Notes under the pieces: generated by a model
The model's input: the letters and a program-made list of their open reading frames with translations, nothing else
The model's database searches: none
What the model was told of the DNA's origin: nothing
In this document: piece by piece, positions 1 through 27,090 of the stretch
Layout: each line of letters starts with the position of its first letter
How positions within the stretch are numbered: position 1 is the stretch's first letter
NCBI GenBank assembly: GCA_964651025.1
Contig: CAZYXF010000001.1
Coordinates: 1 to 27,090 of the forward strand
Direction: 5' to 3'
DNA length: 27,090 nt
Origin: an uncultured archaeon
GTDB lineage: Archaea > Aenigmatarchaeota > Aenigmatarchaeia > GW2011-AR5 > JAHLMP01
Translations under genes and position numbers: made by a program

Positions 1-1731
<1,731 letters not shown>

Positions 1732-1734
1732 CTT

Positions 1735-1750
1735 CTCACAAGCTCACAAG
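1735..1750. repeat. 8-bp tandem direct repeat (CTCACAAG x2) at the tRNA-Cys 3' end / sepS junction
   Basis: ctcacaag at 1735-1742 and 1743-1750. The second copy includes tRNA positions C72 and U73. Confidence 0.6.
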
Positions 1751-1819
1751 CCGGGGAGGGGATTCGAACCCCTGTGAACCGGTCTGCAGCCGGTCGCATA
1801 GCCACTCTGCCACCCCGGC
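1749..1819 (-). tRNA. tRNA-Cys(GCA)
   Basis: Reverse complement folds as acceptor GCCGGGG/CCCCGGC, anticodon arm ACCGG-CTGCAGA-CCGGT, T arm AGGGG-TTCGAAT-CCCCT. U73 and G37 present. No intron and no encoded CCA. Confidence 0.97.
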
Positions 1820-1953
1820 ATTTCGGCCACAAGAACCTTAAAGCTAGAAACGAAAAATCTAGCAAACAGGAGAGAAATAAATTTAGGTTTTTACTTTTAT
1901 TTCTAGCAAAGGCAAACCTCTCTACCCATCATGCGAGTCCTTGGAGGAAATTT

Positions 1954-2334
1954 TTAAATAGGGTTCACTCTTATCTCCTTAGCAACGAGCTCGAGCTCAC
2001 CCTTATACTCGACCAATTTGCCAACGACCTCTATTTTACTTCCTTTTCTAATCTTCTCCAACACCGCTTTGTTCTTTCTCGCAGTGTTCGCGAAGATCAC
2101 AACCTTTATGCTGCTCTCATTCTCTAGCGTTAGGAAAACGTGACCAGCTTCGTGCTCTCTTATTTTGGTTACGTAGCCGGAGGTTGCAATGAACTTCCCA
2201 AGCAAGGACTCGTCTATTTCCTTTATGCTAACCTTCGTTGGCTCCAAGCAAATGGAGAGGAGGAAAAGGCCGAGCAACCCGAGCAAGGAAAGGACAAGCG
2301 AAAGCCTTTGAAGCGATTCATCATTCATGCTCAT
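1954..2334 (-). CDS. OB-fold nucleic acid-binding protein with N-terminal transmembrane anchor
   Basis: Start moved to ATG 2334, which overlaps the CBS gene TGA (ATGA); 126 aa. Hydrophobic LSLVLSLLGLLGLFLLSICL is followed by an OB pattern (GYVTKI, HVFLTL, IKVVIF, IEVVGKLVEYKGELEL). Confidence 0.75.
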   Translation of the reverse strand: MSMNDESLQRLSLVLSLLGLLGLFLLSICLEPTKVSIKEIDESLLGKFIATSGYVTKIREHEAGHVFLTLENESSIKVVIFANTARKNKAVLEKIRKGSKIEVVGKLVEYKGELELVAKEIRVNPI

Positions 2335-2777
2335 CCTCCAACTTCTGTCTTCCTTCTCACAGGAAACCACTTGGCGAGCTTCTCTATTATGGCGTCTTCT
2401 AGCTTAACACCACTCGCAACTATATCGGTTACAGTGATTATCCCAACTAGTTCGTCGTTTTCAACAACTGGCAACTTCTTGATTCTGTTCTCCGTCATTA
2501 TCTCGGCCGCTTTTTCTATTGGCGTGTCTGGCGTTGTAGTTATAACATTCCTCGTCATTATCTCCTTGACAGGTGTTTCCAAACTCCTCCTCTCATTGAC
2601 TATCTTAGAGAGTACATCATATTCCGTAACGATTCCTATGACCTTCTTTCCAGTCTCCTTATCGACTATGACAACGCTTCCAGCGTGATTCTCGACCATC
2701 AAATCTAAAACGTCTTTCACTGTAGCGTCTTCTGTCAAAACGAGCACATTTCGCTTCATTATGTGCTTGACCAGCAT
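2331..2777 (-). CDS. CBS-domain pair protein
   Basis: 148 aa with two CBS repeats (VKHIMKRNV...GIVTEYDV; VKEIMTRNV...LPVVENDELVGIITVTDI). Confidence 0.92.
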   Translation of the reverse strand: MLVKHIMKRNVLVLTEDATVKDVLDLMVENHAGSVVIVDKETGKKVIGIVTEYDVLSKIVNERRSLETPVKEIMTRNVITTTPDTPIEKAAEIMTENRIKKLPVVENDELVGIITVTDIVASGVKLEDAIIEKLAKWFPVRRKTEVGG

Positions 2778-3999: not shown

Positions 4000-4682
4000 A
4001 GTTCGTTCGCGGATATCCTTGCATGTTAATGGGGAGAACTTTAATCCTTGCTGACTTGCACATTGGCTATGAGTTGATGTTAAGAGCACGAGATGTGCAC
4101 GTAAGCGAGGTAAGAACGCTTGTGAACTCAATTTCAACAATAAGAAAGAAAACGAAAGCAAGGTCTATCATCATAGTTGGGGACTTAAAGCACCAACTTG
4201 TTAGAAGGTTGAGAGACGAAGCTTTACTGCTGCGAGGCTTTGTAAGATTTTTGCACAGGGAGTTTGAAGATGTGTTGCTCGTAAAGGGAAACCATGATGG
4301 AAAAATAGAGGAAATTACAAGCAAGCTTCGCGTTTGCAAGTTCGTTTCTTTCAATGGCGATGTTCTCTTGCTTCACGGTCATGCACTTTTCGGTTTGGAT
4401 GTCGAGCATTACAAAACTGTAATCATGGCACATGTTCATCCAGCGATGAAAAGTCTAACAAGAGACGAAAGGGTGTGGATCGTTATGAGAAATCGAAACG
4501 GACAAAAACTCATCATAATGCCAAGCTTCGCTTCACTTGTCGGCATGCTCTATCTCACTCGGGATAGCCTATTCTCGTTGGTGAAAGAGAACGCGATCGT
4601 TAAGAAATTCTCGCCTGTCAATTGTGAGATTTATTCTCTCTTTGGAAAGAAACTATGTGAGCTTTATGAGCTACGAGCTTGA
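3990..4682 (+). CDS. Calcineurin-like metallophosphoesterase, Lhr-associated type
   Basis: Motifs ADLHIG, GDLKH, GNHD, HGH, HVHP. Overlaps the start of the Lhr helicase gene, a known gene pairing. Confidence 0.88.
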   Translation: MEVKFVRGYPCMLMGRTLILADLHIGYELMLRARDVHVSEVRTLVNSISTIRKKTKARSIIIVGDLKHQLVRRLRDEALLLRGFVRFLHREFEDVLLVKGNHDGKIEEITSKLRVCKFVSFNGDVLLLHGHALFGLDVEHYKTVIMAHVHPAMKSLTRDERVWIVMRNRNGQKLIIMPSFASLVGMLYLTRDSLFSLVKENAIVKKFSPVNCEIYSLFGKKLCELYELRA

Positions 4683-7302
4683 CCTGCTTCACCCAAAGGT
4701 TCGCGAGCTAGCCAAAAGCAGGTTCAAGAAGCTTACGTCGATTCAATCCTTGGCTATACCTCGCATACTTAAAGGCGAAAGCCTGCTCTTGATTGCAGGA
4801 ACTGGATTTGGAAAAACAGAAGCAGCGATGCTACCGCTCTTCAGCAAGTTGCTCGAGGAAAAACCAAAGCCAATCGCACTGCTCTACATAACTCCGCTTC
4901 GCGCTTTGAATCGCGATCTATTCTCTCGACTCTTTTGGTGGGGAGATAGGCTAAACTTAAGCATTGGGATAAGGCATGGAGACACGCCTGAAATAGAAAG
5001 AAGGGAGCAGAGGGAAACACCGCCTTTAATACTGATAACCACTCCAGAAAGCCTGCAGATAATTTTGGCCGGCAAGGTAATGAGAAAACACCTTGCAAAC
5101 GTGAGATATGTCGTTATCGATGAGGTTCATGAGCTACTAGGGAGCAAACGTGGCGTCTCGCTTCTCTTCGCTCTAGCTCGCTTACGCTTGCTCACGAGAA
5201 AAAAATTTCAGACGATTGCTCTTTCTGCTACGATTGGAAATCCCCAAGACTTCGCAAAAGCCCTTGGTGTTAAAGTTGTCAAAAGTCTAGAGGAAAGAGA
5301 GCTAGAAGCCACGATTTTGGTGAAAGGAGATATCGATACCCTAGCCGAACTAATTAACAAAGCCAAGAGCTCAATAGTCTTCACGAACACAAGAGATCAA
5401 GCTGAGTGGCTCACGAAGAAGCTAAAGGAAAGATTAAACAAAGTAGAGGTTCATCACAGCTCCATAGAAAAGTCGCACAGAAAGCTTGTTGAAAGCAAGC
5501 TCAGAGAAAGCGCGCTCCAATGCGTTGTCGCAACTAGCTCGCTAGAGCTCGGCATAGATATAGGCGAAGTTGAGGTTGTCATTCAATACTCTTCTCCAAG
5601 ACAGGTTGTTAAGCTCTTGCAAAGAGCAGGTAGGAGCTTGCATCGCGGAATGAAAAAGCAAAGGGTTGTGATTTTAGCTAGCGAAAGCGAGCTTCACGAG
5701 TGCGCCGCAATCGTCGAGCTTGCCCTCGAAAGAAAGCTCGAACGCACCGAGATTCCTTCTCTTTCCCTCGACATCTTAGCGCACCAAATCGTTGGTCTCT
5801 GTCTGAATCGCGATTTTGTAAACCTAGAAGCGATTTATGAACTGGCGAGAAGCGTTTATCCATTTCGCAAGCTTAGAAAGAAGGAGCTGATAGAAGTTGT
5901 TGATTTCCTCTGTGATTTGGGTCTCATAAAGAGATGCGGGAATTTGATAAGAAGAAGGAGAAGGGCTTGGGAGTACTATTACGAGAACGCATCAACCATA
6001 CCAGAGAGCAAGTTCATTAGCATGAAGGATATCGCGAGTGGTAAGCTCATCGCGAAACTTGATTCGAATTTCGTTAGCGAGTACTGCTCTCCTGGTGCAA
6101 CATTCGTATGCGCAGGCATTACCTGGCGCGTTGTAAGCGTCGAGGAAGCTTGCGTTCACGTCGAGAGATGCGAGCATGACTTTTACGCAATTCCGTATTG
6201 GTCTGGAGAGCTCATACCAGTTTCCAAAGAAGTTGCAGCACACGCTGCAGAGCTGTTGGCAGGAAATGGGCTTGAGAGTTTAGAATTCCTGAGCGAGCAT
6301 GCTAGAAAAGTGTTGTTGGAGATGAAGAGAGCGCAAGAAAATTTCTTCAGGCCGAGCACTTCGAGCATAGTGATAGAAAAGTGGAGAGGGAACACGATAT
6401 TGCACGCGTTCTTTGGACAGCGAGTAAATGAAACGCTCGCTTACTATTTGGTCTCCAAGCTAAAAGCAATAAGCGGTGTTTCACCTCGTATCAAGGTGAC
6501 ACCTTATGCAATTGTAGTCTCAACCAGTTTGGAAAAGAATTTTCTCAAGGAGCTGCTTTGCGCTAGCAGCAAAACCGCTTTCATAGCAATTGTGCTCGAG
6601 TTTTTGGTTAACACTCCGCTTTTCAAAAAGGTCTTTCAGCAAGTCGCTGTGAGGTTTGGCATCTTGAAAAGGAGTAGCGATGTTTCATTGGAATTACTAG
6701 GAAAGTTGATAAAAACCTATGAGAACTCTCCTGTTTACAAGGAAACACTAAACGAGATCTCCCAAAGAAAGCTAGACTTAGATGGGGCATATGAGGTGAT
6801 AAAGAAAATCGCAAGTAACGAGATCAGACTAGAAGAGACAAAAGCCCTTTCGCCGCTTGGAAAAATAGCGCTTGAGTACGGCAAGCCTATTGCGAGAGAA
6901 CTTGAGTCAAGCGAGGCCTCGTTAGAAGACTTTAAGAGAAGGATAGAAAATAGATTAGCGAAACTTGTCTGCGCGAATTGCAAGCGAGTTATTTGCAAGC
7001 GATTCGTGAGGGAAATTCGCGAAGCTGATTTGGCTCACTCATGCAAATGTGGCTCAAGGTTAATTGCAGCCCTCTTTGGAGAGGAAAACCTTCCGAAGAG
7101 CAAACTCATTGAGAACGCCGAGCTAATAAAAGAATATGGAAGGCTAGCCCTCTTAGCTCTTGCAACACCTGGAGTTGGCCTGAAAACAGCTAAGCGATTG
7201 CTCGCTAGATTTCCAAGAGATGAGAAAAACTTGCTTTCGAGATTGTACGAAGCCTGGCGTGTTTATCTGAGGACGAGAAAATTCTGGAAATTGGAGGAAT
7301 AG
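4666..7302 (+). CDS. lhr: Lhr-like SF2 helicase (archaeal, C-terminal Cys cluster and HhH)
   Basis: Likely start ATG 4666 (MSYELDLLHP; 878 aa). GTGFGKT, LYITPLRALNRD, TTPESL, DEVH, SAT, LELGIDIG, QRAGRS, C-terminal CANC..CKCG and PGVGLKTA. Confidence 0.92.
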   Translation: MSYELDLLHPKVRELAKSRFKKLTSIQSLAIPRILKGESLLLIAGTGFGKTEAAMLPLFSKLLEEKPKPIALLYITPLRALNRDLFSRLFWWGDRLNLSIGIRHGDTPEIERREQRETPPLILITTPESLQIILAGKVMRKHLANVRYVVIDEVHELLGSKRGVSLLFALARLRLLTRKKFQTIALSATIGNPQDFAKALGVKVVKSLEERELEATILVKGDIDTLAELINKAKSSIVFTNTRDQAEWLTKKLKERLNKVEVHHSSIEKSHRKLVESKLRESALQCVVATSSLELGIDIGEVEVVIQYSSPRQVVKLLQRAGRSLHRGMKKQRVVILASESELHECAAIVELALERKLERTEIPSLSLDILAHQIVGLCLNRDFVNLEAIYELARSVYPFRKLRKKELIEVVDFLCDLGLIKRCGNLIRRRRRAWEYYYENASTIPESKFISMKDIASGKLIAKLDSNFVSEYCSPGATFVCAGITWRVVSVEEACVHVERCEHDFYAIPYWSGELIPVSKEVAAHAAELLAGNGLESLEFLSEHARKVLLEMKRAQENFFRPSTSSIVIEKWRGNTILHAFFGQRVNETLAYYLVSKLKAISGVSPRIKVTPYAIVVSTSLEKNFLKELLCASSKTAFIAIVLEFLVNTPLFKKVFQQVAVRFGILKRSSDVSLELLGKLIKTYENSPVYKETLNEISQRKLDLDGAYEVIKKIASNEIRLEETKALSPLGKIALEYGKPIARELESSEASLEDFKRRIENRLAKLVCANCKRVICKRFVREIREADLAHSCKCGSRLIAALFGEENLPKSKLIENAELIKEYGRLALLALATPGVGLKTAKRLLARFPRDEKNLLSRLYEAWRVYLRTRKFWKLEE

Positions 7303-7325
7303 CGTTTCTAATCGTTTTGTGAAAA

Positions 7326-7333
7326 TTTAAATA
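7326..7333 (+). promoter_or_regulatory. TATA box (TTTAAATA) with purine-rich BRE-like GTGAAAA upstream, for the Lys-rich small ORF
   Basis: Lies just downstream of the lhr stop and 31 nt before ATG 7365. Confidence 0.55.
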
Positions 7334-7364
7334 GTGGATAAGTGCAAAAACTTTTAGTGGAAGA

Positions 7365-7463
7365 ATGGCGAGGAAGAAGAAAAAGACGAAGAAAAAGAAG
7401 ACCGCAAAGAAAAAGAAGGCGAAAAAGAAGAAAGCTAAGAAAAGGAAGAAGAAAAAGAAGTAG
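7365..7463 (+). CDS. 32-aa Lys-rich, protamine/histone-H1-tail-like peptide
   Basis: MARKKKKTKKKKTAKKKKAKKKKAKKRKKKKK* (23 K, 2 R). AAG and AAA codons are mixed, with a TATA upstream and a T-rich tract downstream. Below the ORF track cutoff. Confidence 0.72.
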   Translation: MARKKKKTKKKKTAKKKKAKKKKAKKRKKKKK

Positions 7464-7470
7464 CGATTAA

Positions 7471-7504
7471 CCCTTCTTTTTGTTGTTGGCTTGTTTCGTT
7501 TTTC
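7471..7504 (+). terminator. Oligo-T terminator-like tract
   Basis: cccttctttttgttgttggcttgtttcgtttttc, 7 nt after the small ORF stop, in the gap facing the convergent taw1. Confidence 0.5.
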
Positions 7505-7547
7505 ATAGGTTATTCAAAAGTGTAAAGGCAGTTCAAACGAAGTTAAA

Positions 7548-8477
7548 TTACTTCCTCAAGAGCGCAACCCTGCTCTCTCTACTTTCGTCAACAAGCTTAT
7601 ACCCGCTTTCCCTCGCTATAATTCTAGCGAACTCCACTATCTCTTCATGAAGTGGCATGGCTTCATAGGGCAATCGTTTCCTTGCGAATCCAACGCTCAT
7701 AAACGATTTAACTTCGACGAACTTCGGCTCATAGCGAGCTATCAATTTCGCATAGGCTTCTGGCCTTATGAAATTGAGGTTTTTCACAAGCGTTAGCCTG
7801 ATCACTGTGTTGCAAGAGAAAGAAGCGAGCAAGGAGAGGCTCTCGTTTATCCGCTTCCACCCATCGCTTATCAATGGTCTGCACGTCTTTTTATAGGTTT
7901 CTTCGTCTGGTGCTGGAAGCGTTATATATAACTGCGTAGGCTCTTCCATAGTTTTCAAAACTTCTGGCAGCGTTCCATTCGTAACGACAAAACAAGTCAT
8001 GCCCCGTGATTTTATCTCGCTTATAAGTTCCGAAACTTTAGGATAGAGCAATGGTTCTCCTGCCAGGCTCAAGGTCATGTGCTTTGGTCTCATTGCTTCT
8101 TCGAAGAGCTTTCTCGAAACTCGCGGATTTCCCTTAAAGCCCTGAAGTAGCTCTTTGTGAGCCTTGATGCAAGCGTCTACTATCTCGCTTGGCTCGTCTA
8201 TTTCAACATTGCTCATGCTCGTCCCAAATGTCGCGTCTACATTGCGCCAGCAGAACAGGCAGCGATGGGTGCACCAAAATAGCGCAGGCGTTATCTGAAC
8301 GCAGCGATGCGAAGCTATTCCATAGAACTTGTGCTTGTAGCAAAAACCTTCGCCTCTCAATGCTTTCTTGCACCAAAGGCAAACCTTAACAGCACTATGC
8401 TTGTGCTTTCCAACTACGCGATATGCCTTTTCTTCGTATTCCCTTATAGCACGCTCAAGTTTGGCTTTCTCTATCAT
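7548..8477 (-). CDS. taw1: 4-demethylwyosine synthase Taw1/TYW1 (radical SAM tRNA modification)
   Basis: HSAVKVCLWC, CYKHKFYGIASHRC, radical SAM CTHRCLFCWR, LSLAGEP, VTNGT, VEVKSFM. Start moved to ATG 8477 (309 aa). Confidence 0.94.
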   Translation of the reverse strand: MIEKAKLERAIREYEEKAYRVVGKHKHSAVKVCLWCKKALRGEGFCYKHKFYGIASHRCVQITPALFWCTHRCLFCWRNVDATFGTSMSNVEIDEPSEIVDACIKAHKELLQGFKGNPRVSRKLFEEAMRPKHMTLSLAGEPLLYPKVSELISEIKSRGMTCFVVTNGTLPEVLKTMEEPTQLYITLPAPDEETYKKTCRPLISDGWKRINESLSLLASFSCNTVIRLTLVKNLNFIRPEAYAKLIARYEPKFVEVKSFMSVGFARKRLPYEAMPLHEEIVEFARIIARESGYKLVDESRESRVALLRK

Positions 8478-8515
8478 GAAGAACTTGTCTATAAAATTGA
8501 AAAGCAATAGCTATC

Positions 8516-9557: not shown

Positions 9558-9972
9558 AGCTGAGAAATTCAACTACAGCTCGCTCTTCCAGCGAGCAAAA
9601 GCTAACATAAAGTTCGTTGGAAGCGAAGCGAAGTTCACACCACCTGAGCTGAGGATAGATGTCATTGGAAGGAAGACTATCATAAGGAACTTCGTTGATT
9701 TCTGCGATTTCTTCCGTCGCGACCCAAAGCAAGTTGCTCGTTATTTGTTTCGCCAGCTTGGGATACCAGGCACGATAGAGGGAAAGCGACTAATTCTACA
9801 GCAGCGTTATGATGAGCGAACCATAAAGAAAGTCCTTGACGAATACCTTGAATACTACGTCTATTGTAAGGAGTGTGGATCAAAGGATACAGTTATCTTA
9901 AAGCGAGGGAAGAACATTTACTTGCGTTGCGAAGCCTGCGGTGCCGAGCGCGGATTGAGAAAAGTGAAATAA
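9547..9972 (+). CDS. eif2b: Translation initiation factor aIF-2 beta
   Basis: KTIIRNF, RRDPK, LGIPG, YVYCKECGSKDT and CEACGA (C4 zinc ribbon). ATG 9547 preferred to TTG 9541. Confidence 0.92.
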   Translation: MESKAEKFNYSSLFQRAKANIKFVGSEAKFTPPELRIDVIGRKTIIRNFVDFCDFFRRDPKQVARYLFRQLGIPGTIEGKRLILQQRYDERTIKKVLDEYLEYYVYCKECGSKDTVILKRGKNIYLRCEACGAERGLRKVK

Positions 9973-10334
9973 TGCGAGGGCAGTGGTTCATAATAACAGC
10001 TGTTTCGATAATCGCTTCTCTCGCTTTGTTTTCCTTAAGTCTAACCATTCCAGTTGAGCTCGATGTGACAGAGCCGGCTAGAGTAAGCGAGGGCTTTTAC
10101 TTCAGGAATTTCGTTGAAGAGCTGAACAAAACCGTGAACTATTGCCTTACCGATTCGCTTGACTGTGAGAAAGAAATCAAGTGGTTCATAGCCTATGCGA
10201 GAAAGGAGCTCGCTGGAATGGGCTATAATCTCGTTGTTAAGAACAGGACTTCGCTTCTCTCCTTTCCCATAAAATTCTACATCGAGCTCTCATCAGAGAG
10301 AGCAAACATATCGCAAGTGTTTTCGTTTCCTTGA
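9972..10334 (+). CDS. Small secreted protein with class III (prepilin-type) signal peptide
   Basis: ATG 9972 overlaps the aIF2-beta TAA (TAATG). N-terminus is MRG|QWFIITAVSIIASLALFSLSL; 120 aa. Confidence 0.65.
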   Translation: MRGQWFIITAVSIIASLALFSLSLTIPVELDVTEPARVSEGFYFRNFVEELNKTVNYCLTDSLDCEKEIKWFIAYARKELAGMGYNLVVKNRTSLLSFPIKFYIELSSERANISQVFSFP

Positions 10335-14180: not shown

Positions 14181-14699
14181 TTAATTGAACTGTCTCATAA
14201 AATGTTTTACGAGCAACTCGTTCACAGCAGGATTTTCACGCGTTTGATGATGTAGGAGCTCTTCTGCGGTTACTTCAACAGGGTCTAATGAAAGAGTGTA
14301 AGTTATGCCAGGGAAACACATGTATGTGCCACTTTCTATGTCAACTGCACAAAATGGCACTTCATCGAACATAGCTTTGTTGAGGACAATCGTATCGCCT
14401 ACTTGATATCCGCCTATAGCTCCTATCTTCAGAGTTTTAGTTTCTCTGTCTATTCGAAAGAGCAATGGAAGTGGTTCTTCCCTGACTTCTCTCGGCAGTC
14501 TTGTGTTCATGTAAATTAGCATGTCCTCCTTTGGGATTTCTAGCTCTTTGGAAAGCAAGTCAGCAACATGATTATAAGCTTCGTTGACTATTTCAACTAC
14601 ACGAGAAACATAGCGCGGATCAGCGAAAACGTAGATTTTACCTCTCGTCTCCTTCACATTATAGAGATCTTCGTAGAATTCGTTCAGCGATCTGTTCAT
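14181..14699 (-). CDS. Hypothetical 172-aa protein, possible zincin-like fold (EExxH variant)
   Basis: Has an SD-like AAGGTGA and TTTTAA upstream, and no competing gene. GGYQVGDTIVLN...VTAEELLHH resembles the zincin strand plus HExxH helix. Confidence 0.6.
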   Translation of the reverse strand: MNRSLNEFYEDLYNVKETRGKIYVFADPRYVSRVVEIVNEAYNHVADLLSKELEIPKEDMLIYMNTRLPREVREEPLPLLFRIDRETKTLKIGAIGGYQVGDTIVLNKAMFDEVPFCAVDIESGTYMCFPGITYTLSLDPVEVTAEELLHHQTRENPAVNELLVKHFMRQFN

Positions 14700-17595: not shown

Positions 17596-18900
17596 TTACT
17601 CAATAACATAAACCGAGAGCTCGCATTTCTTCAGCTCAAATCTCTCATCTTGACAGAGCACATCTCTTTCAAACGCGTGTACGTTCGCAGCCCTTGGAAT
17701 CGCTTTTCCAAGCTCAAATACAACATCGCTCTCATTTCGAAGCTTTACTCTGAAATCCCTTCCCAGACCAATTCTACGTTTTAGGATGAGATAATCGAGG
17801 TGTTTAAAAAGCTCAATTTTCCTTAGCTGCATGACTTTTCTGCTCAGAAATGGCACCGATTTCTCAACGATGCTATTGTTTCCAACTACGCTTGAGTTGC
17901 AAAAAGCATTCGTGTAATTGGAATCGTCGTCAAAGCGAACCGTGAAGAGCTTCGTCTCATTTATCGAGAGGTTCGTCACAAAACTTAACGTTGCGTTGCT
18001 TGGGCTAACGTTGCAAGGCACTTGGTTAAAGTTCTCATCAAATACCTTGACGGAGTTGAAATCGATGCTTGCAAAGCCAAGCTGCGAAAAATTAACGAGG
18101 ATTAGCTCGTTCGTTAAGTTCGTTACGTTTGCGCTTTGGTTTATGTAAAATGGCTTCGAGTTGTTTGCAATCACCTTAACTTCATATATTCTCGTCCCAA
18201 GACCAAATTGCAAAGGTAAAAGCTTGCTTTTTGTCCAGTTCAGTTTTACGCTCGCGTAGTCCATGCAGAGCTTGGCTTCGGCTTCCTGAACGTAATAAAG
18301 CGTTATCCTGATGGAATTCGCTTGCTCCGGCGTTTCAACATGCTCGCCAATGTTAAAGCTCCAGTTCGTCCATTCATCACTCGCTATTCCACCCCAATCA
18401 GCAAAGTACTTTGAAAAGATGAGCGCATCGTCCTTCTTATCTCCTTTCCCACTATCTCGCTCAAAAGCTGTTGCGTTATAAACTACGAGAAAAACCGAGC
18501 TTCCAACGATTACGTCGCTCGTCAAGTTGGCGCTCTCAAAAACTATTTCAATCGCGTTTTCCCCATTTGCTGGAGAGATGCAGAAATAGCTTCCGTCTCC
18601 ATAGCTTTTCAGCTCGTTAGTTACGATTGATTTCGTCTCGTTCGTAAAAGCATTGAAGACACGAGCAAAAGCTACGCTGAGCGTGCTTTGATTAATGGAA
18701 ACGTTCTCATACCACTTAGCTGGCAGGCCAAAGCTAGAGAGCGAATTAAGTAAGCTAAGCGCATCGCTTCTACTTGCGAGCTCCTTGAGCTCCTCCTTCA
18801 CGGAAATGAGATGGTCGCTAGTTGTCCCCACGAAAAGAGCGAACAATAAAATGAACATTCCCGTAGCTATGGCAAAATCGACTTGAGATATGCCTCGCAT
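17596..18900 (-). CDS. Large class III signal peptide (pilin-like) surface glycoprotein, 434 aa
   Basis: Real start is ATG 18900, since the ORF-track extension is antisense to rps10. MRG|ISQVDFAIATGMFILLFALFVG, then GLPAKW. About 20 N-x-S/T sequons. Confidence 0.72.
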   Translation of the reverse strand: MRGISQVDFAIATGMFILLFALFVGTTSDHLISVKEELKELASRSDALSLLNSLSSFGLPAKWYENVSINQSTLSVAFARVFNAFTNETKSIVTNELKSYGDGSYFCISPANGENAIEIVFESANLTSDVIVGSSVFLVVYNATAFERDSGKGDKKDDALIFSKYFADWGGIASDEWTNWSFNIGEHVETPEQANSIRITLYYVQEAEAKLCMDYASVKLNWTKSKLLPLQFGLGTRIYEVKVIANNSKPFYINQSANVTNLTNELILVNFSQLGFASIDFNSVKVFDENFNQVPCNVSPSNATLSFVTNLSINETKLFTVRFDDDSNYTNAFCNSSVVGNNSIVEKSVPFLSRKVMQLRKIELFKHLDYLILKRRIGLGRDFRVKLRNESDVVFELGKAIPRAANVHAFERDVLCQDERFELKKCELSVYVIE

Positions 18901-18928
18901 TTTAATGGTTTGCGCCCTGATTATTAAG
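18901..18928. promoter_or_regulatory. 28-bp back-to-back (bidirectional) promoter
   Basis: TTTAAT is 23-28 nt upstream of the rps10 ATG. TTAATAA on the minus strand is 21-27 nt upstream of the pilin-like ATG. Confidence 0.55.
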
Positions 18929-19252
18929 ATGCAGCGCGCGAGGATAAAGCTGTGGGGGCGAGATCCAAAGCAGATAGACGAGTTAGCGAGGGAAATAAGG
19001 AAAATAGCAGAAAAGGTTGGCGTTGCTGTTCGCGGCCCAATTCCATTGCCAACTAAGCGATTGCGAATAACTTGCATTCGCACCCCATGTGGAGATGGCA
19101 TGCATCGCGGTGGTCCAACGAACTGGGATCATTGGGAGCTTAGAATCCACAAGCGCATAATAGACGTCGCAGCAAACCCTCGAGTACTGAAACAGATAAC
19201 TCGCTTGCCGATTCCTCAAGGGGTTAAAATGGAGATTGAGCTAACGGATTAG
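18929..19252 (+). CDS. rps10: 30S ribosomal protein uS10
   Basis: ARIKLWG, VRGPIPLPTKRL, RTPCGDG, WDHWELRIHKRIIDV; 107 aa from ATG 18929. Confidence 0.96.
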   Translation: MQRARIKLWGRDPKQIDELAREIRKIAEKVGVAVRGPIPLPTKRLRITCIRTPCGDGMHRGGPTNWDHWELRIHKRIIDVAANPRVLKQITRLPIPQGVKMEIELTD

Positions 19253-20529
19253 AAAGGTTTGGTTATGCTTACTTCTCTAACAAGCGCATATGGAACTATG
19301 CTCGGCGTTTCGACTTCCCACCACTTCACCTTGCAGCGCTCCTTTGAGAGCGCCTCTATGCCCTTCAAAAGCCTCGGAAAGCTAGCGGTGATTCTTAAGT
19401 TTTTGACCAATCCCTTCACTTCGCCATTTTCAAATAAAATCGCAACGTCTCTTGGCAAGGTTGAAAACTCTCCAGTTCTGTAGTTGGTGAACCTCGTGTA
19501 CCAAACGTTGTTTATGAAGATTAGCCTTCTTGAGCTCTCAAGCATGGAAGCAAGTCTTTCGTTTCCGCCAGCAACGCTTATTAGCCATGCTCTCGGGACG
19601 AGCAAGCCAGCATTGCTCGTGCTGCTTGCGTTCAGCTCAATTGCTGTCGAGGTGTTGTGCAAATAGTTTTTTAGGACCCCGTTTTCTATTATCCTCGTCC
19701 TTTGCGTTCTCCTTCCTTCTTCGTCAAACGCTGCTATTGCACTTCCGAGATCGTGAAGCGTGAATCGAGAGCTCGCAACTCTTTTCCCAAGCTTTCCACA
19801 TAGAAACGACTCTCCTAAGAGGACGTAGAAAGCTGAGGCAGCGCAAGCTAAGTGCTCACACAAGTTCGCGAATGCCATTGGATGAAAAAGAACGTCGTAT
19901 TTTCCAGCCTTGAGTTTTGCTAGCTTTGCTCCTTTAGCTAGTTCAAGCAGCCTGCTAACCTCGCTTATAGCTCTCTCCACCTTCAAATCCCCTTGGGAAA
20001 ACGCAAAGGTCGAGGCATGTGCAGAGGTTTCGTCGCTAATAACGCGAAGTGAGAAGTCCAAAAAGCTTCTCGACTCGCTAGCTCTCGCTCCGCTACTTGT
20101 CAAAAGCTCGCGCTCATAGCTCGCGAAGTTGAGCACGCCAGCGAATTCCGCTTCTATCTCACTCCTAACTCTCTCGACGGCTTCAATTGGGTTGAAGAAA
20201 TCGAGTGATTTGTCCCTTTTGTCATAGCTTCCCCTTGCTAGTCTATCGCTAGCTATCCCATGGTAATCCTTTTTTTCCCTCGCGACTCTTAGCAACTTCA
20301 GGGCGTTTTTTACGAACTCCTTCACTTTGTTCTCCCTTAGATCTTGGGTTGAAAGGCAAACCACCTTTTTCCCTTTTGCCAGGAATAGGGTTAGGCTCTC
20401 TTCTCTCCATCTTTTCTCTATCGTTGGTTGTGAGTTCGCGAACTTAAGCTGGTGATCATCGCTTCTCACAATCTCGATAACAAAATCATCAACCTTTGCT
20501 TCTATCTTTCTCGCTATCGTTTCTATCAT
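19249..20529 (-). CDS. tldE: TldE/PmbA family protein
   Basis: Start ATG 20529 overlaps the tldD TGA (426 aa). LKFANSQ, FDEEG, IIENGVLKNYLHN, VWYTRF, ENGEV. No HExxxH. Confidence 0.88.
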   Translation of the reverse strand: MIETIARKIEAKVDDFVIEIVRSDDHQLKFANSQPTIEKRWREESLTLFLAKGKKVVCLSTQDLRENKVKEFVKNALKLLRVAREKKDYHGIASDRLARGSYDKRDKSLDFFNPIEAVERVRSEIEAEFAGVLNFASYERELLTSSGARASESRSFLDFSLRVISDETSAHASTFAFSQGDLKVERAISEVSRLLELAKGAKLAKLKAGKYDVLFHPMAFANLCEHLACAASAFYVLLGESFLCGKLGKRVASSRFTLHDLGSAIAAFDEEGRRTQRTRIIENGVLKNYLHNTSTAIELNASSTSNAGLLVPRAWLISVAGGNERLASMLESSRRLIFINNVWYTRFTNYRTGEFSTLPRDVAILFENGEVKGLVKNLRITASFPRLLKGIEALSKERCKVKWWEVETPSIVPYALVREVSITKPF

Positions 20530-21929
20530 CTCACCACCACGTTGCGAAGCCTTATATACGGACCGCCCATGAAAACCGGGATTCCCTGCATTGGTTCGCC
20601 CTTTCCACAAGTCCCTGCGACGAATTGCAAGTCGCGAGAGCAGGCGTCGATAGAAGAGAGAAAGGTAAAGGTTGTTAGCTCTATAACTGGGCGCCTCACA
20701 AGACCCTTTATCTCGCCGTTCTCTATCAAATAAGCCTCGCATCCAACGTACTTTTGGTTAACCCTCTTATCATCTATGTTCCACTCAGTAAAGGAGTTTA
20801 TGAAGATCCCTCGCTTTACATCTTCGATTAGCTCGTCAAAGGTGTAGCTTCCTGGCAAGATGAAGGTGTTCGCCATCCTTACTATCGGCTCTCTCGCATA
20901 GCTGCTAGCCCTAGCTGCTGCATTGCTCTTTGTGTTGAAAGCGAAAGCTGTCTCCCTATTTTGAAGGAACTCTTTAACTACGCCGCGCTCTATTAGCATC
21001 CTTCTCCTAGCTTTCACACCTTCGTCATCATAGAGATAAAAGCCATAGCTCCCTTTTATCGTTGGGTCATCGACAACGCTGACTTCAACGCTTCCAATTC
21101 TCTTGCCAAGCAGTTCAACGCTTGCATAGCTCTTCCCAGCTTGTGCTGCCTCTCTTCCAAGTATCCTGTCAGCCTCAAATGGGTGACCAACGCATTCGTG
21201 TACAATTATGCCAACAAGCTCTGGAGAAAGGATCACATCATACTTTCCGGCTTTTGCTTTTTTGGCGTGAAGCGTGCTTTGCAGCAAGGTCGCTTCCCTT
21301 GCTATTTTCTCGCTTGCGTTCCATCGCTTCACCCATCTAAAACCGCCGCTGCAACCGAGATAAAAATACCTTTGCTCGCATTTCCCAGCGAACTTAGCTA
21401 AAAGATTGTAAAAGAGGTGATACCTCTCGACTTCGCTTCTAATCTCACTTCCCTCTGAGTTAACGAAGAGCTTCTCCTGTTTGGTGTGGGTTAGCTCAAG
21501 GAATCGCATCGCAAGCTTCACTTCCTTAAGGTTCCCATCTATTCCCTTTAGGAAATCCATTAGCTCATCTATCGTAAGCTCTTTTCCAACTGCTCGCCAC
21601 CTTGCCTTTTTTGATTTCTCTTCACTCAGCTCAATCCTCTCCTTTCTCTTCTCCCCTATCAATCTAGCTCTTTGAACGGCGCGCTTCACCAAGCTCTTTA
21701 TCTCGCTTCTCGCAAGCTTTGTCGTCGAAGCAAATGCCTCGCCTCCATTTGCGATTACTCTTATCCCAATTCCGATGCTAGAGCTTTGAAGTGGAAGTTC
21801 CCAATCTCCGTTTTTCATGGCAACTTGCTCTGTTTCGCAAGCTTCCACCCTTGCATCCGCATAAGACGCTCCCAGCTTAACAGCAAACTCAACAGCGAGG
21901 TTTGCTAAATCAATTGCATGGCTTTCCAT
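20526..21929 (-). CDS. tldD: TldD family zinc metalloprotease
   Basis: YADAR, GIGIRV, HECVGHPFEADR (HExxxH), YDDEG, RMANT, CGKGEPMQ. Confidence 0.93.
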   Translation of the reverse strand: MESHAIDLANLAVEFAVKLGASYADARVEACETEQVAMKNGDWELPLQSSSIGIGIRVIANGGEAFASTTKLARSEIKSLVKRAVQRARLIGEKRKERIELSEEKSKKARWRAVGKELTIDELMDFLKGIDGNLKEVKLAMRFLELTHTKQEKLFVNSEGSEIRSEVERYHLFYNLLAKFAGKCEQRYFYLGCSGGFRWVKRWNASEKIAREATLLQSTLHAKKAKAGKYDVILSPELVGIIVHECVGHPFEADRILGREAAQAGKSYASVELLGKRIGSVEVSVVDDPTIKGSYGFYLYDDEGVKARRRMLIERGVVKEFLQNRETAFAFNTKSNAAARASSYAREPIVRMANTFILPGSYTFDELIEDVKRGIFINSFTEWNIDDKRVNQKYVGCEAYLIENGEIKGLVRRPVIELTTFTFLSSIDACSRDLQFVAGTCGKGEPMQGIPVFMGGPYIRLRNVVVR

Positions 21930-23721: not shown

Positions 23722-25358
23722 CGATGGATAAGCAAGCCTTGCTCTCGCTCATAGGAGTGAAGCTCAGCGACGACAAGCTCGTTGAACTCATAAACTCGCT
23801 AAAACCAGAGGTTGAAGAAATAACGGAAAACGAGATAACAATCGAGTTCACTCCTGATAGGCCGGACATGTTCTCGTTAGAAGGGTTGGCAAGAGCGATT
23901 AGACTGGCCCTTGGTCTGGAAAGGCCGAGGAAAATTAGAGCGAGAAACGCGAGGCTGAGCGTGAAAGTAGAAAAAGTTCGCGCTCGCCCATTTGTTGCCT
24001 GCGCGATAATAAGAGGAGCGAAGCTCAACGAGGCTACGATAAAGAACCTGATGAACTTCCAAGAAGCTCTTCACCAGACAATCGGAAGGAATAGGAGGAA
24101 GGTTGCAATTGGCTTGCACGACCTCGACAAGATAAAGCCACCGATAAAGTATTGTGAAGTATCGCCAGAAACAAAGCTAATTCCTCTTGGCTGGGAAAGC
24201 GAGGCGACGATGAAAGAAATACTGCAAAGGCATGAGAAGGGAGTTGAGTTCGCGCATTTGTTAAGGGATGTGAAAGGCTATCCAGCATTCGTCGATGAGC
24301 TTGGTGTCTTCAGCTTTCCTCCCATAATAAACTCAAAGCGCACGATGGTAACGGAGAAGACGAGGAACTTCTTCCTTGACATGACAGCAACAGATGAAAC
24401 AGCACTCGACCAAGCCATGCGGGTTTTCGTAGCCAATCTCGCCTGGAGGGGGTGGAGAATAGAGAAAGTGATTTTGATAAAAGATAAGGCTCGCTACGAA
24501 ACCCCAAACTTATCGGAAAGGAAAATCGAGATAAACGCGAGCTATGTCAACCGATTGCTCGGCCTTAACTTGAAAAGAGAAGAAATAGAAAGCTTGCTGA
24601 AAAAGGCTGGCTATAGAGTTCTTGGAAAAAAGAAGGCGAGCTTAAAACTCGCAGTTCCTCCTTATAGAGTTGATGTCCTCCATCCAGTTGATGTCGTGGA
24701 AGATGTGGCGATAATTTACGGGTATAGCAACTTTGAGCCGAGGTTGCCAAATATAACAACGATTGGAAAAATCAGCGATTTCTCAAAGTTCCTCGACGTG
24801 ATTCGCGAGCTCTGCATTGGCGCAGGTCTAGTTGAGGTCATGCTTCCAGTATTAGCTGCGAGTGAGAAGCAAAGGTTCTTTTGCGAAGGTGAAAAGCTCG
24901 TCATGCTCGAAAACCCTGTTTCAAGAGCTTATGATACAATGCGCTGTTCTTTGCTACCTGGTTTGCTCGACTTTCTCGCGGCTAACAAGCACGAGGACAT
25001 GCCGCAAAGGATTTTTGAAATCGGTAGAGTTGTTGAAATCGATGAAAAGAGCGAGAATAAAACGAGGGAAACTTGGATGTTGGCCTGCGTTATCACGGAT
25101 TACGAGATAGGTTATGAAGCTATAGCAAGCGTTTTAGACGCGATACTTCGCGACCTTGTTGATTACAAGCTGAAAAGAGGCGAGCACAAGTGCTTCATAA
25201 AGGGAAGGGTAGCCAGCGTTCTTGTGAGTAAAGAGGAGATAGGTAAAGTCGGTGAGATACATCCAGGTGTTCTGCTCGCTTTCAAGTTGGAATCGCCAGT
25301 AGTGGCTTTTGAAATTAACTTGACAAAACTTTTTAGGATTTTACGGGCCTCCACTTAA
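23709..25358 (+). CDS. pheT: Phenylalanyl-tRNA synthetase beta subunit (archaeal type)
   Basis: MPTI start, TPDRPDM, GRNRRKVAIGLHDLD, PPIINS, PPYRVDVLHPVDVVEDVAI, GEIHP. Confidence 0.95.
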   Translation: MPTITMDKQALLSLIGVKLSDDKLVELINSLKPEVEEITENEITIEFTPDRPDMFSLEGLARAIRLALGLERPRKIRARNARLSVKVEKVRARPFVACAIIRGAKLNEATIKNLMNFQEALHQTIGRNRRKVAIGLHDLDKIKPPIKYCEVSPETKLIPLGWESEATMKEILQRHEKGVEFAHLLRDVKGYPAFVDELGVFSFPPIINSKRTMVTEKTRNFFLDMTATDETALDQAMRVFVANLAWRGWRIEKVILIKDKARYETPNLSERKIEINASYVNRLLGLNLKREEIESLLKKAGYRVLGKKKASLKLAVPPYRVDVLHPVDVVEDVAIIYGYSNFEPRLPNITTIGKISDFSKFLDVIRELCIGAGLVEVMLPVLAASEKQRFFCEGEKLVMLENPVSRAYDTMRCSLLPGLLDFLAANKHEDMPQRIFEIGRVVEIDEKSENKTRETWMLACVITDYEIGYEAIASVLDAILRDLVDYKLKRGEHKCFIKGRVASVLVSKEEIGKVGEIHPGVLLAFKLESPVVAFEINLTKLFRILRAST

Positions 25359-25428
25359 CTGGTCTTAGATCACGCTCGCTCTCCTCTTCTATGAGCAATC
25401 GCTTTTTCTTCCGCTTCTTTCGCTTCAT
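25333..25428 (-). CDS. Putative 31-aa basic peptide translationally coupled to minD
   Basis: MKRKKRKKKRLLIEEESERDLRPVKWRPVKS*. ATG overlaps the minD TGA (ATGA). Overlaps the pheT 3' end by 26 nt. Confidence 0.4.
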   Translation of the reverse strand: MKRKKRKKKRLLIEEESERDLRPVKWRPVKS

Positions 25429-27037: not shown

Positions 27038-27090
27038 TGCCCCCGGGAGGATTCGAACCCCCGACCACCTGGTTAGAAGCCAGGCGCTCT
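27038..27090 (-). tRNA. tRNA-Arg(TCT), 3' part (5' end beyond the window)
   Basis: Anticodon arm CCTGG-CTTCTAA-CCAGG, T arm GGGGG-TTCGAAT-CCTCC, acceptor 3' strand CGGGGGC then A73. Confidence 0.92.

Follow-up and report, generated by a model that had tools for sequence, protein, structure and literature searches.

Protamines, the C-terminal tails of histone H1 and bacterial H1-like tails share a pattern in which amino acid composition is kept while sequence and length drift, and Coxiella ScvA is a basic chromatin peptide of 30 aa. Polyamines stabilise nucleic acids at high temperature, and multivalent cations are important for nucleic-acid stability in geothermal habitats. Set beside these systems, the locus described here holds a micro-gene, predicted to encode a lysine/arginine (K/R) peptide of 8-33 residues, which heat-loving DPANN archaea have retained at the same place in the genome. 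Full-text literature searches on lysine-rich, protamine-like and micro ribosomal proteins of archaea returned no account of such a gene.

The micro-gene and its transcription signals

The window, i.e., the whole 27,090-nt stretch of DNA that was analysed, is 93% coding, and its largest internal intergenic gap (245 nt, 7303-7547) holds the micro-gene. Read directly from the DNA, the ORF MARKKKKTKKKKTAKKKKAKKKKAKKRKKKKK (7365-7463, plus strand) comprises 32 codons with an ATG start and a TAG stop. With 23 Lys and 2 Arg, 25 of its 32 residues are basic; its net charge is approximately +25, and no acidic, aromatic or hydrophobic residue follows Met1. The Lys codons are 16 AAG and 7 AAA, AAA is never doubled, and the longest A-run is 5 nt. 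The probability of a maximum A-run of 5 nt or less was 0.10 on shuffling the micro-gene's own codons and 0.024 when codons were drawn at window usage (54% AAG); as a sign of selection on the protein, the short A-runs are suggestive, not strong, and give mild support. The repeat periods in the Lys tract (12, 15, 18 and 30) are all multiples of 3. Besides the micro-gene, the window has K/R-dense open sequence only in an out-of-frame stretch within the upstream helicase gene lhr.

Upstream of the ORF on the plus strand, a BRE-like GTGAAAA (7319-7325) is followed by the TATA box TTTAAATA (7326-7333), a motif with only three occurrences in the 27 kb when both strands are counted. A conserved element, TTAGTGGAAGA (7354-7364, plus strand), would serve as initiator and short leader, with transcription predicted to start at approximately 7356/7357 and a 5'UTR of approximately 9 nt. 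This leader may include a partial Shine-Dalgarno sequence (GTGR); its GTGA is part of the Shine-Dalgarno sequence GGAGGTGAT, which is present 5' of the window's Pop5 gene and of the micro-ORF at locus L009. An oligo-T region (7474-7503, plus strand) lies downstream of the stop codon, with T5 runs at 7477-7481 and 7499-7503. Because archaeal RNA polymerase terminates at oligo-T, the transcript of the micro-gene would end at these runs. On the opposite strand, the complement of the Lys codons forms a pyrimidine tract (7373-7460, minus strand) that includes several runs of T4-T5. The convergent gene TYW1 has its stop codon at 7548, and its strand offers just one T4 before this tract; a probable secondary, non-exclusive role of these antisense T-runs is to end transcription of TYW1. 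Rfam covariance models gave no match at E≤1 on either strand of 7250-7600, and the predicted RNA fold of the micro-gene was no better than shuffled controls (z = -0.46).

The initial annotation had described a stand-alone, lysine-rich, protamine-like gene of 32 codons with its own promoter and terminator in a genome that wastes little DNA, and the ORF, the flanking signals and the coding density all agree with that description. Its statement that gene callers would miss this family was wrong, as five public contigs already have a gene call, without annotation, for the identical 32-aa product. One contig with the identical peptide comes from IMG sample 3300014887, a Guaymas Basin hydrothermal sediment (PMC8065059). 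The contigs carrying the micro-gene (the five with the called gene, a JGI copy of one of them and one further strain) are 95.5-99.9% identical to the window overall. Across seven strain variants, diverged by up to 4.5%, no indel was found in the slippage-prone Lys tract, and the three variable sites of the micro-gene consist of two synonymous changes and one K>R replacement. The exact 32-aa sequence was not found in the clustered protein collection, and a cluster look-up by exact sequence with five peptide variants likewise found none of them there. A phmmer search of the 32-aa peptide against 1.84 billion representatives gave no match at E≤0.001, as expected for a query of 32 aa and low complexity. 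A protein search with the C-terminus of Lhr gave no match either.

Genomic surroundings and orthologous units

The upstream neighbour, 62 nt from the micro-gene, encodes an Lhr-type helicase (4624-7302, plus strand; Pfam DEAD, Helicase_C, WH_Lhr and DEAD_assoc), and the convergent neighbour encodes the radical-SAM wyosine enzyme TYW1/Taw1 (7548-8507, minus strand; Pfam Radical_SAM and Wyosine_form on called genes). Public calls of TYW1 give a 309-aa product, as would result from initiation at an internal ATG near 8477. Among named relatives, this TYW1 is closest to those of Aenigmatarchaeota (60% identity), followed by MAGs of other DPANN and Hydrothermarchaeota. The window is a housekeeping stretch containing the genes for O-phosphoseryl-tRNA synthetase (SepRS), tRNA-Cys, a Trp/Tyr-type tRNA synthetase (called TrpRS here from Pfam tRNA-synt_1b), a metallophosphoesterase (MPE), Lhr and TYW1, together with RNase P Rpp30, Pop5, aIF2beta, enolase, uS2, ProRS, TldD/PmbA, ScpB and PheRS alpha and beta.

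Several other features of the window were recorded. The SepRS gene (205-1731, minus strand; Pfam tRNA-synt_2d and SepRS_C) lies 17 nt from tRNA-Cys(GCA) (1749-1819, minus strand), which points to the indirect Sep-tRNA:Cys pathway in a DPANN-like archaeon. A second perfect TTTTTAAATA box is present at 1950-1960 (plus strand), at the edge of a 134-nt gap (1820-1953); neither strand has an obvious ORF following it. The box may drive an unannotated small RNA or micro-ORF, or else it may be a TATA box of the minus strand, upstream of tRNA-Cys. Four ORFs of 501 aa (17596-19101, minus strand), 172 aa (14181-14699, minus strand), 153 aa (9873-10334, plus strand) and 182 aa (2140-2688, plus strand) had no Pfam match at E≤0.001-0.01, and the first of these is the largest unexplained gene of the window. 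The tandem TldD/PmbA-family genes (19249-20742 and 20526-21929, both minus strand) overlap by 217 nt in their longest ORFs, and the true start of the downstream one probably lies at a codon past the listed ATG. A tRNA gene at 27038-27090 (minus strand; Rfam tRNA, 41 bits) is truncated by the window end and lacks its 5' part. In addition, a 31-aa ORF, MKRKKRKKKRLLIEEESERDLRPVKWRPVKS (25333-25428, minus strand), starts on the stop codon of a ParA/Mrp-like gene, and PheRS-beta on the opposite strand overlaps it with its 3' end. This ORF is probably spurious, being K/R-rich at its N-terminus only, with an acidic stretch and without a TATA box.

Orthologous micro-ORFs were found at further loci, encoding 33 aa at L001 (MAARRKTRKKKAARRTKKKTARKKSRRKKRRKR), 22 aa at L020 (MAAGKKVKKKATKKTSRRKRKK), 8 aa (MAKKKKKK) at the Aenigmatarchaeota loci L002 and L003, which originate from hot springs at 60 °C and 86.5 °C. 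A comparable micro-ORF of 32 aa is present at the Woesearchaeota loci L009/L034 (MAVKRKKVAKRKTATKRKTTTKRKTATKRKRR). Both L001 and L020 have the gene order aIF2beta-Pop5-Rpp30 / TYW1 / micro-ORF / Lhr, with MPE and TrpRS also present beyond Lhr at L001; their identities to the window are 43-46% for Lhr, 45-47% for Rpp30, 59% for Pop5 and 73-75% for TYW1. At L002 and L003, the order TYW1 / micro-ORF / Lhr-MPE is kept, and Lhr is 39% identical to that of the window. Lhr directly precedes the micro-gene in the window, L001, L020, L002 and L003, and these five share, between the convergent Lhr and TYW1 stop codons, a common unit consisting of TTTAAATA, a spacer of 20-21 nt, TTAGTGAG, a further 2-5 nt, ATGGC, Lys/Arg codons, a stop codon and T-runs. 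Specifically, TTAGTGAG starts 20-21 nt past the TATA box in all five lineages, and TTTAAATA lies 31-34 nt 5' of the ATG in L001, L020, L002 and L003 as well. At L001 and L020, approximately 30 nt separate the stop codon of the micro-ORF from that of TYW1.

In the Woesearchaeota L009/L034, the micro-ORF lies between TatD and TYW1, upstream of TYW1 and on its strand, with no convergent gene. A near-perfect Shine-Dalgarno sequence, GGAGAGGTGAT, precedes its ATG by 5 nt, T-runs follow the stop codon, and TYW1 of L009 has an AT-rich promoter-like element directly upstream that is separate from the micro-ORF. TYW1 thus adjoins the micro-gene in all six lineages of this small survey, and a T-rich tract follows the stop codon in every orthologue. 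For peptides so short and of such low complexity, homology is statistically unprovable, so the Woesearchaeota copy could be convergent. No micro-gene lies downstream of TYW1 in L017-L019, the relatives with the most similar TYW1 (79-80% identical), where a tRNA gene and a different upstream gene occupy the site; this layout indicates that the neighbourhood was rearranged at least once within the clade.

Composition and reading frame are conserved across the lineages, unlike sequence and length. In alignment A1, the identity of the window peptide to those of L001 and L009 is 42-57%, and the K+R share is 78% in the window, 70% in L001, 59% in L020, 75% in L002/L003 and 56% in L009. The remaining residues of the peptides are A, T, S, V and G only, without D or E. 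The ATGGC and the K/R frame are kept in six lineages, and the GTGA element in those other than L009. In every lineage the ATG frame is the K/R frame, and no D or E occurs although purine-only codons include GAA and GAG (as well as the Gly codons GGA and GGG); the other frames of the micro-gene DNA are Glu-rich or contain stops. Interruptions of the purine run are always whole codons for Ala, Thr, Ser, Val, Gly or Arg. At L001, many Lys residues are replaced by Arg codons (CGA, AGA and AGG) with charge retained, which means that the simple repeat has been lost in the DNA. Moreover, L002 and L003 are 87.7% identical overall, and the block of approximately 85 nt that begins at the TATA box and ends shortly after the stop codon carries 2 substitutions where approximately 10 differences are expected (Poisson P ~0.002, hand arithmetic); the intergenic DNA flanking this block has substitutions and indels. 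A scan of approximately 195 kb (the window and the fetched loci) sought open stretches in which 18 residues include 11 or more K/R; of those found, only the micro-gene units were both ATG-initiated and acid-free.

The weightiest evidence for a gene is synteny with distant lineages: the unit is kept at 39-46% Lhr identity, where neutral intergenic DNA would be unalignable, which argues that it is not a chance polypurine tract. A slippage artefact or neutral tract is ruled out by this conservation, by the purity of the frame and by the lack of indels among strains, and a detached C-terminal tail of Lhr by the conserved TATA box between the two genes and by the absence of a K-rich tail in the Lhr orthologues examined. 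The check for a conserved frame in close relatives, which the initial annotation had proposed, thus came out in favour of a gene: an ATG-GCN-K/R frame, promoter and terminator are kept where the flanking proteins are 39-60% identical, as expected of a stand-alone gene. On these comparative grounds, the micro-gene is probably translated. Its conserved entity is a length-tolerant oligo-cation rather than a defined 32-aa protein, since orthologues of 22 aa and 8 aa exist. The family became visible through synteny and promoter architecture only, and similar micro-genes have therefore probably been overlooked systematically.

The promoter and leader were also searched for in viral sequences. In IMG/VR, a back-translated N-terminus pattern gave no match, and a promoter-leader pattern gave 14 matches, none of which precedes a K/R micro-ORF. 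Eleven of the 14 belong to one group of related viral contigs. In ten related contigs (L038, L040-L045 and L047-L049), TTTAAATA-N21-TTAGTGA(G/A)TAA(T/A)TATGGC lies just 5' of a conserved 265-aa protein (MANFNGTRDSNVA...). Of these, L038 was checked, and there the preceding ORF contains the match within its coding sequence, at the 3' end. The idea that these matches represent a generic strong-expression module was dropped; they look like a chance resemblance, with no K/R micro-ORF following.

Proposed role and alternative explanations

In the reading favoured here, which is quite possibly right, the micro-gene is translated into a polycation of flexible length, and charge is what lets this peptide bind nucleic acids. 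It would be an independent, strongly promoted transcription unit of approximately 125 nt whose sole product is an oligo-Lys/Arg peptide (32 aa; 8-33 aa in relatives). Selection would act on charge and reading frame and not on a particular sequence or length, and the peptide, being disordered, would neutralise nucleic-acid phosphates electrostatically and compact or stabilise DNA and/or RNA in the geothermal habitat. We infer transcription, translation, nucleic-acid binding and the nucleic-acid target of the micro-gene alike. The occurrence of lengths of 8, 22, 32 and 33 aa at one site, together with a kept composition, favours a disordered electrostatic binder, and by analogy a protamine-like role is plausible. 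Several points count against this reading. The 8-aa MAKKKKKK is very short for a chromatin protein, so that the act of translation or the RNA could matter more than the peptide. The Woesearchaeota copy could be convergent, and the close relatives L017-L019 have no micro-gene at this site. In addition, the composition of the Lys tract could be due in part to a second use as a T-rich terminator for the opposite strand.

If the peptide is made, the micro-gene would be among the shortest and compositionally most extreme conserved genes known, with an orthologue of 8 codons, and selection could maintain a gene for charge alone. It would be an unannotated addition to the very small DPANN proteomes, as a counter-ion of chromatin or nucleic acids or as a ribosome-associated peptide. 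Consecutive Lys codons slow ribosomes in other systems, which also counts against the reading, and translation of the micro-gene would raise the question of how ribosomes avoid stalling on an ORF in which as many as 23 of 32 codons specify Lys.

The polycation might also act in bulk. As a "ribosomal polyamine" from a dedicated and highly expressed micro-gene, oligo-Lys of 8-33 residues, its length shifting by codon slippage, could serve as the general polycation that stabilises DNA, rRNA and tRNA in the heat in thermophilic DPANN unable to make polyamines, a proposal that we regard as rather unlikely. It arises from comparative genomics of DPANN, in which spermidine/spermine synthesis was reported mainly in Micrarchaeota and Parvarchaeota and attributed to lateral transfer (PMC8407392), so an encoded surrogate for polyamines is conceivable. 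The lineages bearing the micro-gene would presumably be without polyamine synthesis. If the proposal were true, the peptide would belong to a class of gene product not recognised before, in which charge is all that selection acts on.

The conserved feature could instead be a unit of DNA or RNA, either a bidirectional terminator or insulator between Lhr and TYW1, with an A-rich tract followed by a T-rich one, or an antisense or purine-rich small RNA, with the ORF as a by-product and the peptide irrelevant; this seems rather unlikely. The complement of the Lys codons does give T4-T5 runs exactly where TYW1 needs a terminator, whereas the CGA and AGG codons of L001 break these antisense T-runs yet preserve charge. 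A convergent layout, kept in five lineages, would suit a terminator between two genes, but the unit of L009/L034 has no convergent gene: it shares the strand of TYW1, lies upstream of that gene and has a strong Shine-Dalgarno sequence. Although the predicted fold has the purine tract base-paired to the U-tract further downstream, no significant RNA structure and no Rfam match were found. The shrinkage of the orthologue to 8 codons in L002/L003 would be in keeping with an irrelevant peptide; a terminator, however, needs no consensus TATA box at a fixed distance, no conserved ATGGC and no frame free of Glu and stop codons.

A ribosome- or rRNA-bound micro-protein, present once per ribosome in an rRNA groove as an analogue, not a homologue, of eL41/eS32, bS22, bL37 and bTHX, is quite unlikely. 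Tiny, extremely basic and strongly promoted genes are typically ribosomal, and the surroundings of the micro-gene are rich in translation genes (TYW1, Rpp30, Pop5, aIF2beta, aminoacyl-tRNA synthetase genes and uS2), with adjacency to TYW1 recurring in Woesearchaeota. The distribution of eL41 in archaea is patchy, the protein being missing from many archaeal phyla (PMC9932298), which would leave room for such an analogue. Nevertheless, three family members matched nothing in Pfam at E≤10 (including Ribosomal_L41, Linker_histone and Hc1), and family members matched no NCBIfam model (including bS22 and bL37) and no PDB chain, ribosomal chains included, at the same threshold. As a control, the 25-aa yeast eL41 retrieved the archaeal eL41 chains 4v4n, 6skf and 6sw9 (E 0.05-0.5), a comparison to be read with the caveat that the micro-gene queries are short and of biased composition. 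W, L, I, F and internal M are absent from all five peptide variants; aromatic or hydrophobic residues for packing are missing, and a range of 8-33 aa between related lineages is hard to square with a fixed rRNA pocket. The identity of the peptide with eL41/eS32 itself was rejected on the same searches and on the absence of W, M and L; the peptide is not detectably eL41, and the distinction that the initial annotation had drawn from the missing W and Arg-rich pattern was borne out.

Highly unlikely is a regulatory micro-ORF whose Lys codons, on translation, would sense Lys-tRNA or translation capacity and tune read-through or antisense transcription into TYW1 (sense in Woesearchaeota). TYW1 is the neighbour in six lineages, L009 has promoter, Shine-Dalgarno sequence, micro-ORF, T-tract and TYW1 in this order on one strand, and leader peptides tolerate changes in length and usually have 8-33 codons; but in the window, L001, L020, L002 and L003 only a convergent gene lies downstream, no alternative hairpins are apparent (z = -0.46), TYW1 of L009 appears to own the AT-rich promoter just upstream, no known logic ties lysine to wyosine synthesis, and attenuation by a leader peptide is, to our knowledge, not established in archaea.

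Comparison with known systems

The micro-gene has features in common with bacterial leader peptides and attenuator micro-ORFs, namely 8-33 codons and a run of a single amino acid followed by a U-tract. Unlike these, the window clade has neither a co-oriented downstream gene nor alternative hairpins, and the micro-gene has a promoter and a terminator of its own. The combination of a co-oriented gene and mutually exclusive hairpins was not found; L009 has the co-oriented layout, but with a separate AT-rich promoter-like element in front of TYW1.

With eL41/eS32, bS22, bL37 and bTHX, the micro-gene shares the size class (24-37 aa), a very high pI and a tiny stand-alone gene that is easily overlooked. 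However, eL41-type proteins keep a recognisable sequence across domains and contain W, M, L or H, whereas the micro-gene family varies four-fold in length; the eL41 trait of a Trp and Met/Leu in an Arg-rich helix (KWRKKR-type motif) is absent. Likeness to polyamines such as spermine and the long or branched polyamines of thermophiles lies in being a small multivalent cation, and AKKKKKK, after removal of Met, would carry a charge of approximately +7, within the polyamine range. Unlike polyamines, the peptide is ribosomally encoded and not enzymatically synthesised.

The closest resemblance, drawn from established knowledge and not from a tool match, is to protamines, H1 C-terminal tails, Chlamydia Hc1/Hc2, Pseudomonas AlgP, the tail of mycobacterial HupB and Coxiella ScvA. 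These polycations are extremely rich in K/R, have small neutral spacers (A/T/S) and keep their composition under drift of sequence and length. The features of this class (more than 50% K+R, small neutral spacers, no acidic residues and low complexity) are all found in the micro-gene peptide, and electrostatic binding of polyanions is presumably common to both. The peptide differs from the protamine/H1-like families in being archaeal, without a globular domain and without detectable homology to them; it is also shorter (8-33 aa versus 50-200 aa, ScvA excepted) and nearly pure in lysine, in contrast to the arginine of protamine and the Arg/Gln of ScvA. Judged by the conservation of its frame, charge and position, the micro-gene appears to represent a genuine, conserved and so far undescribed family, which would belong with the tiny polycationic nucleic-acid-binding peptides.
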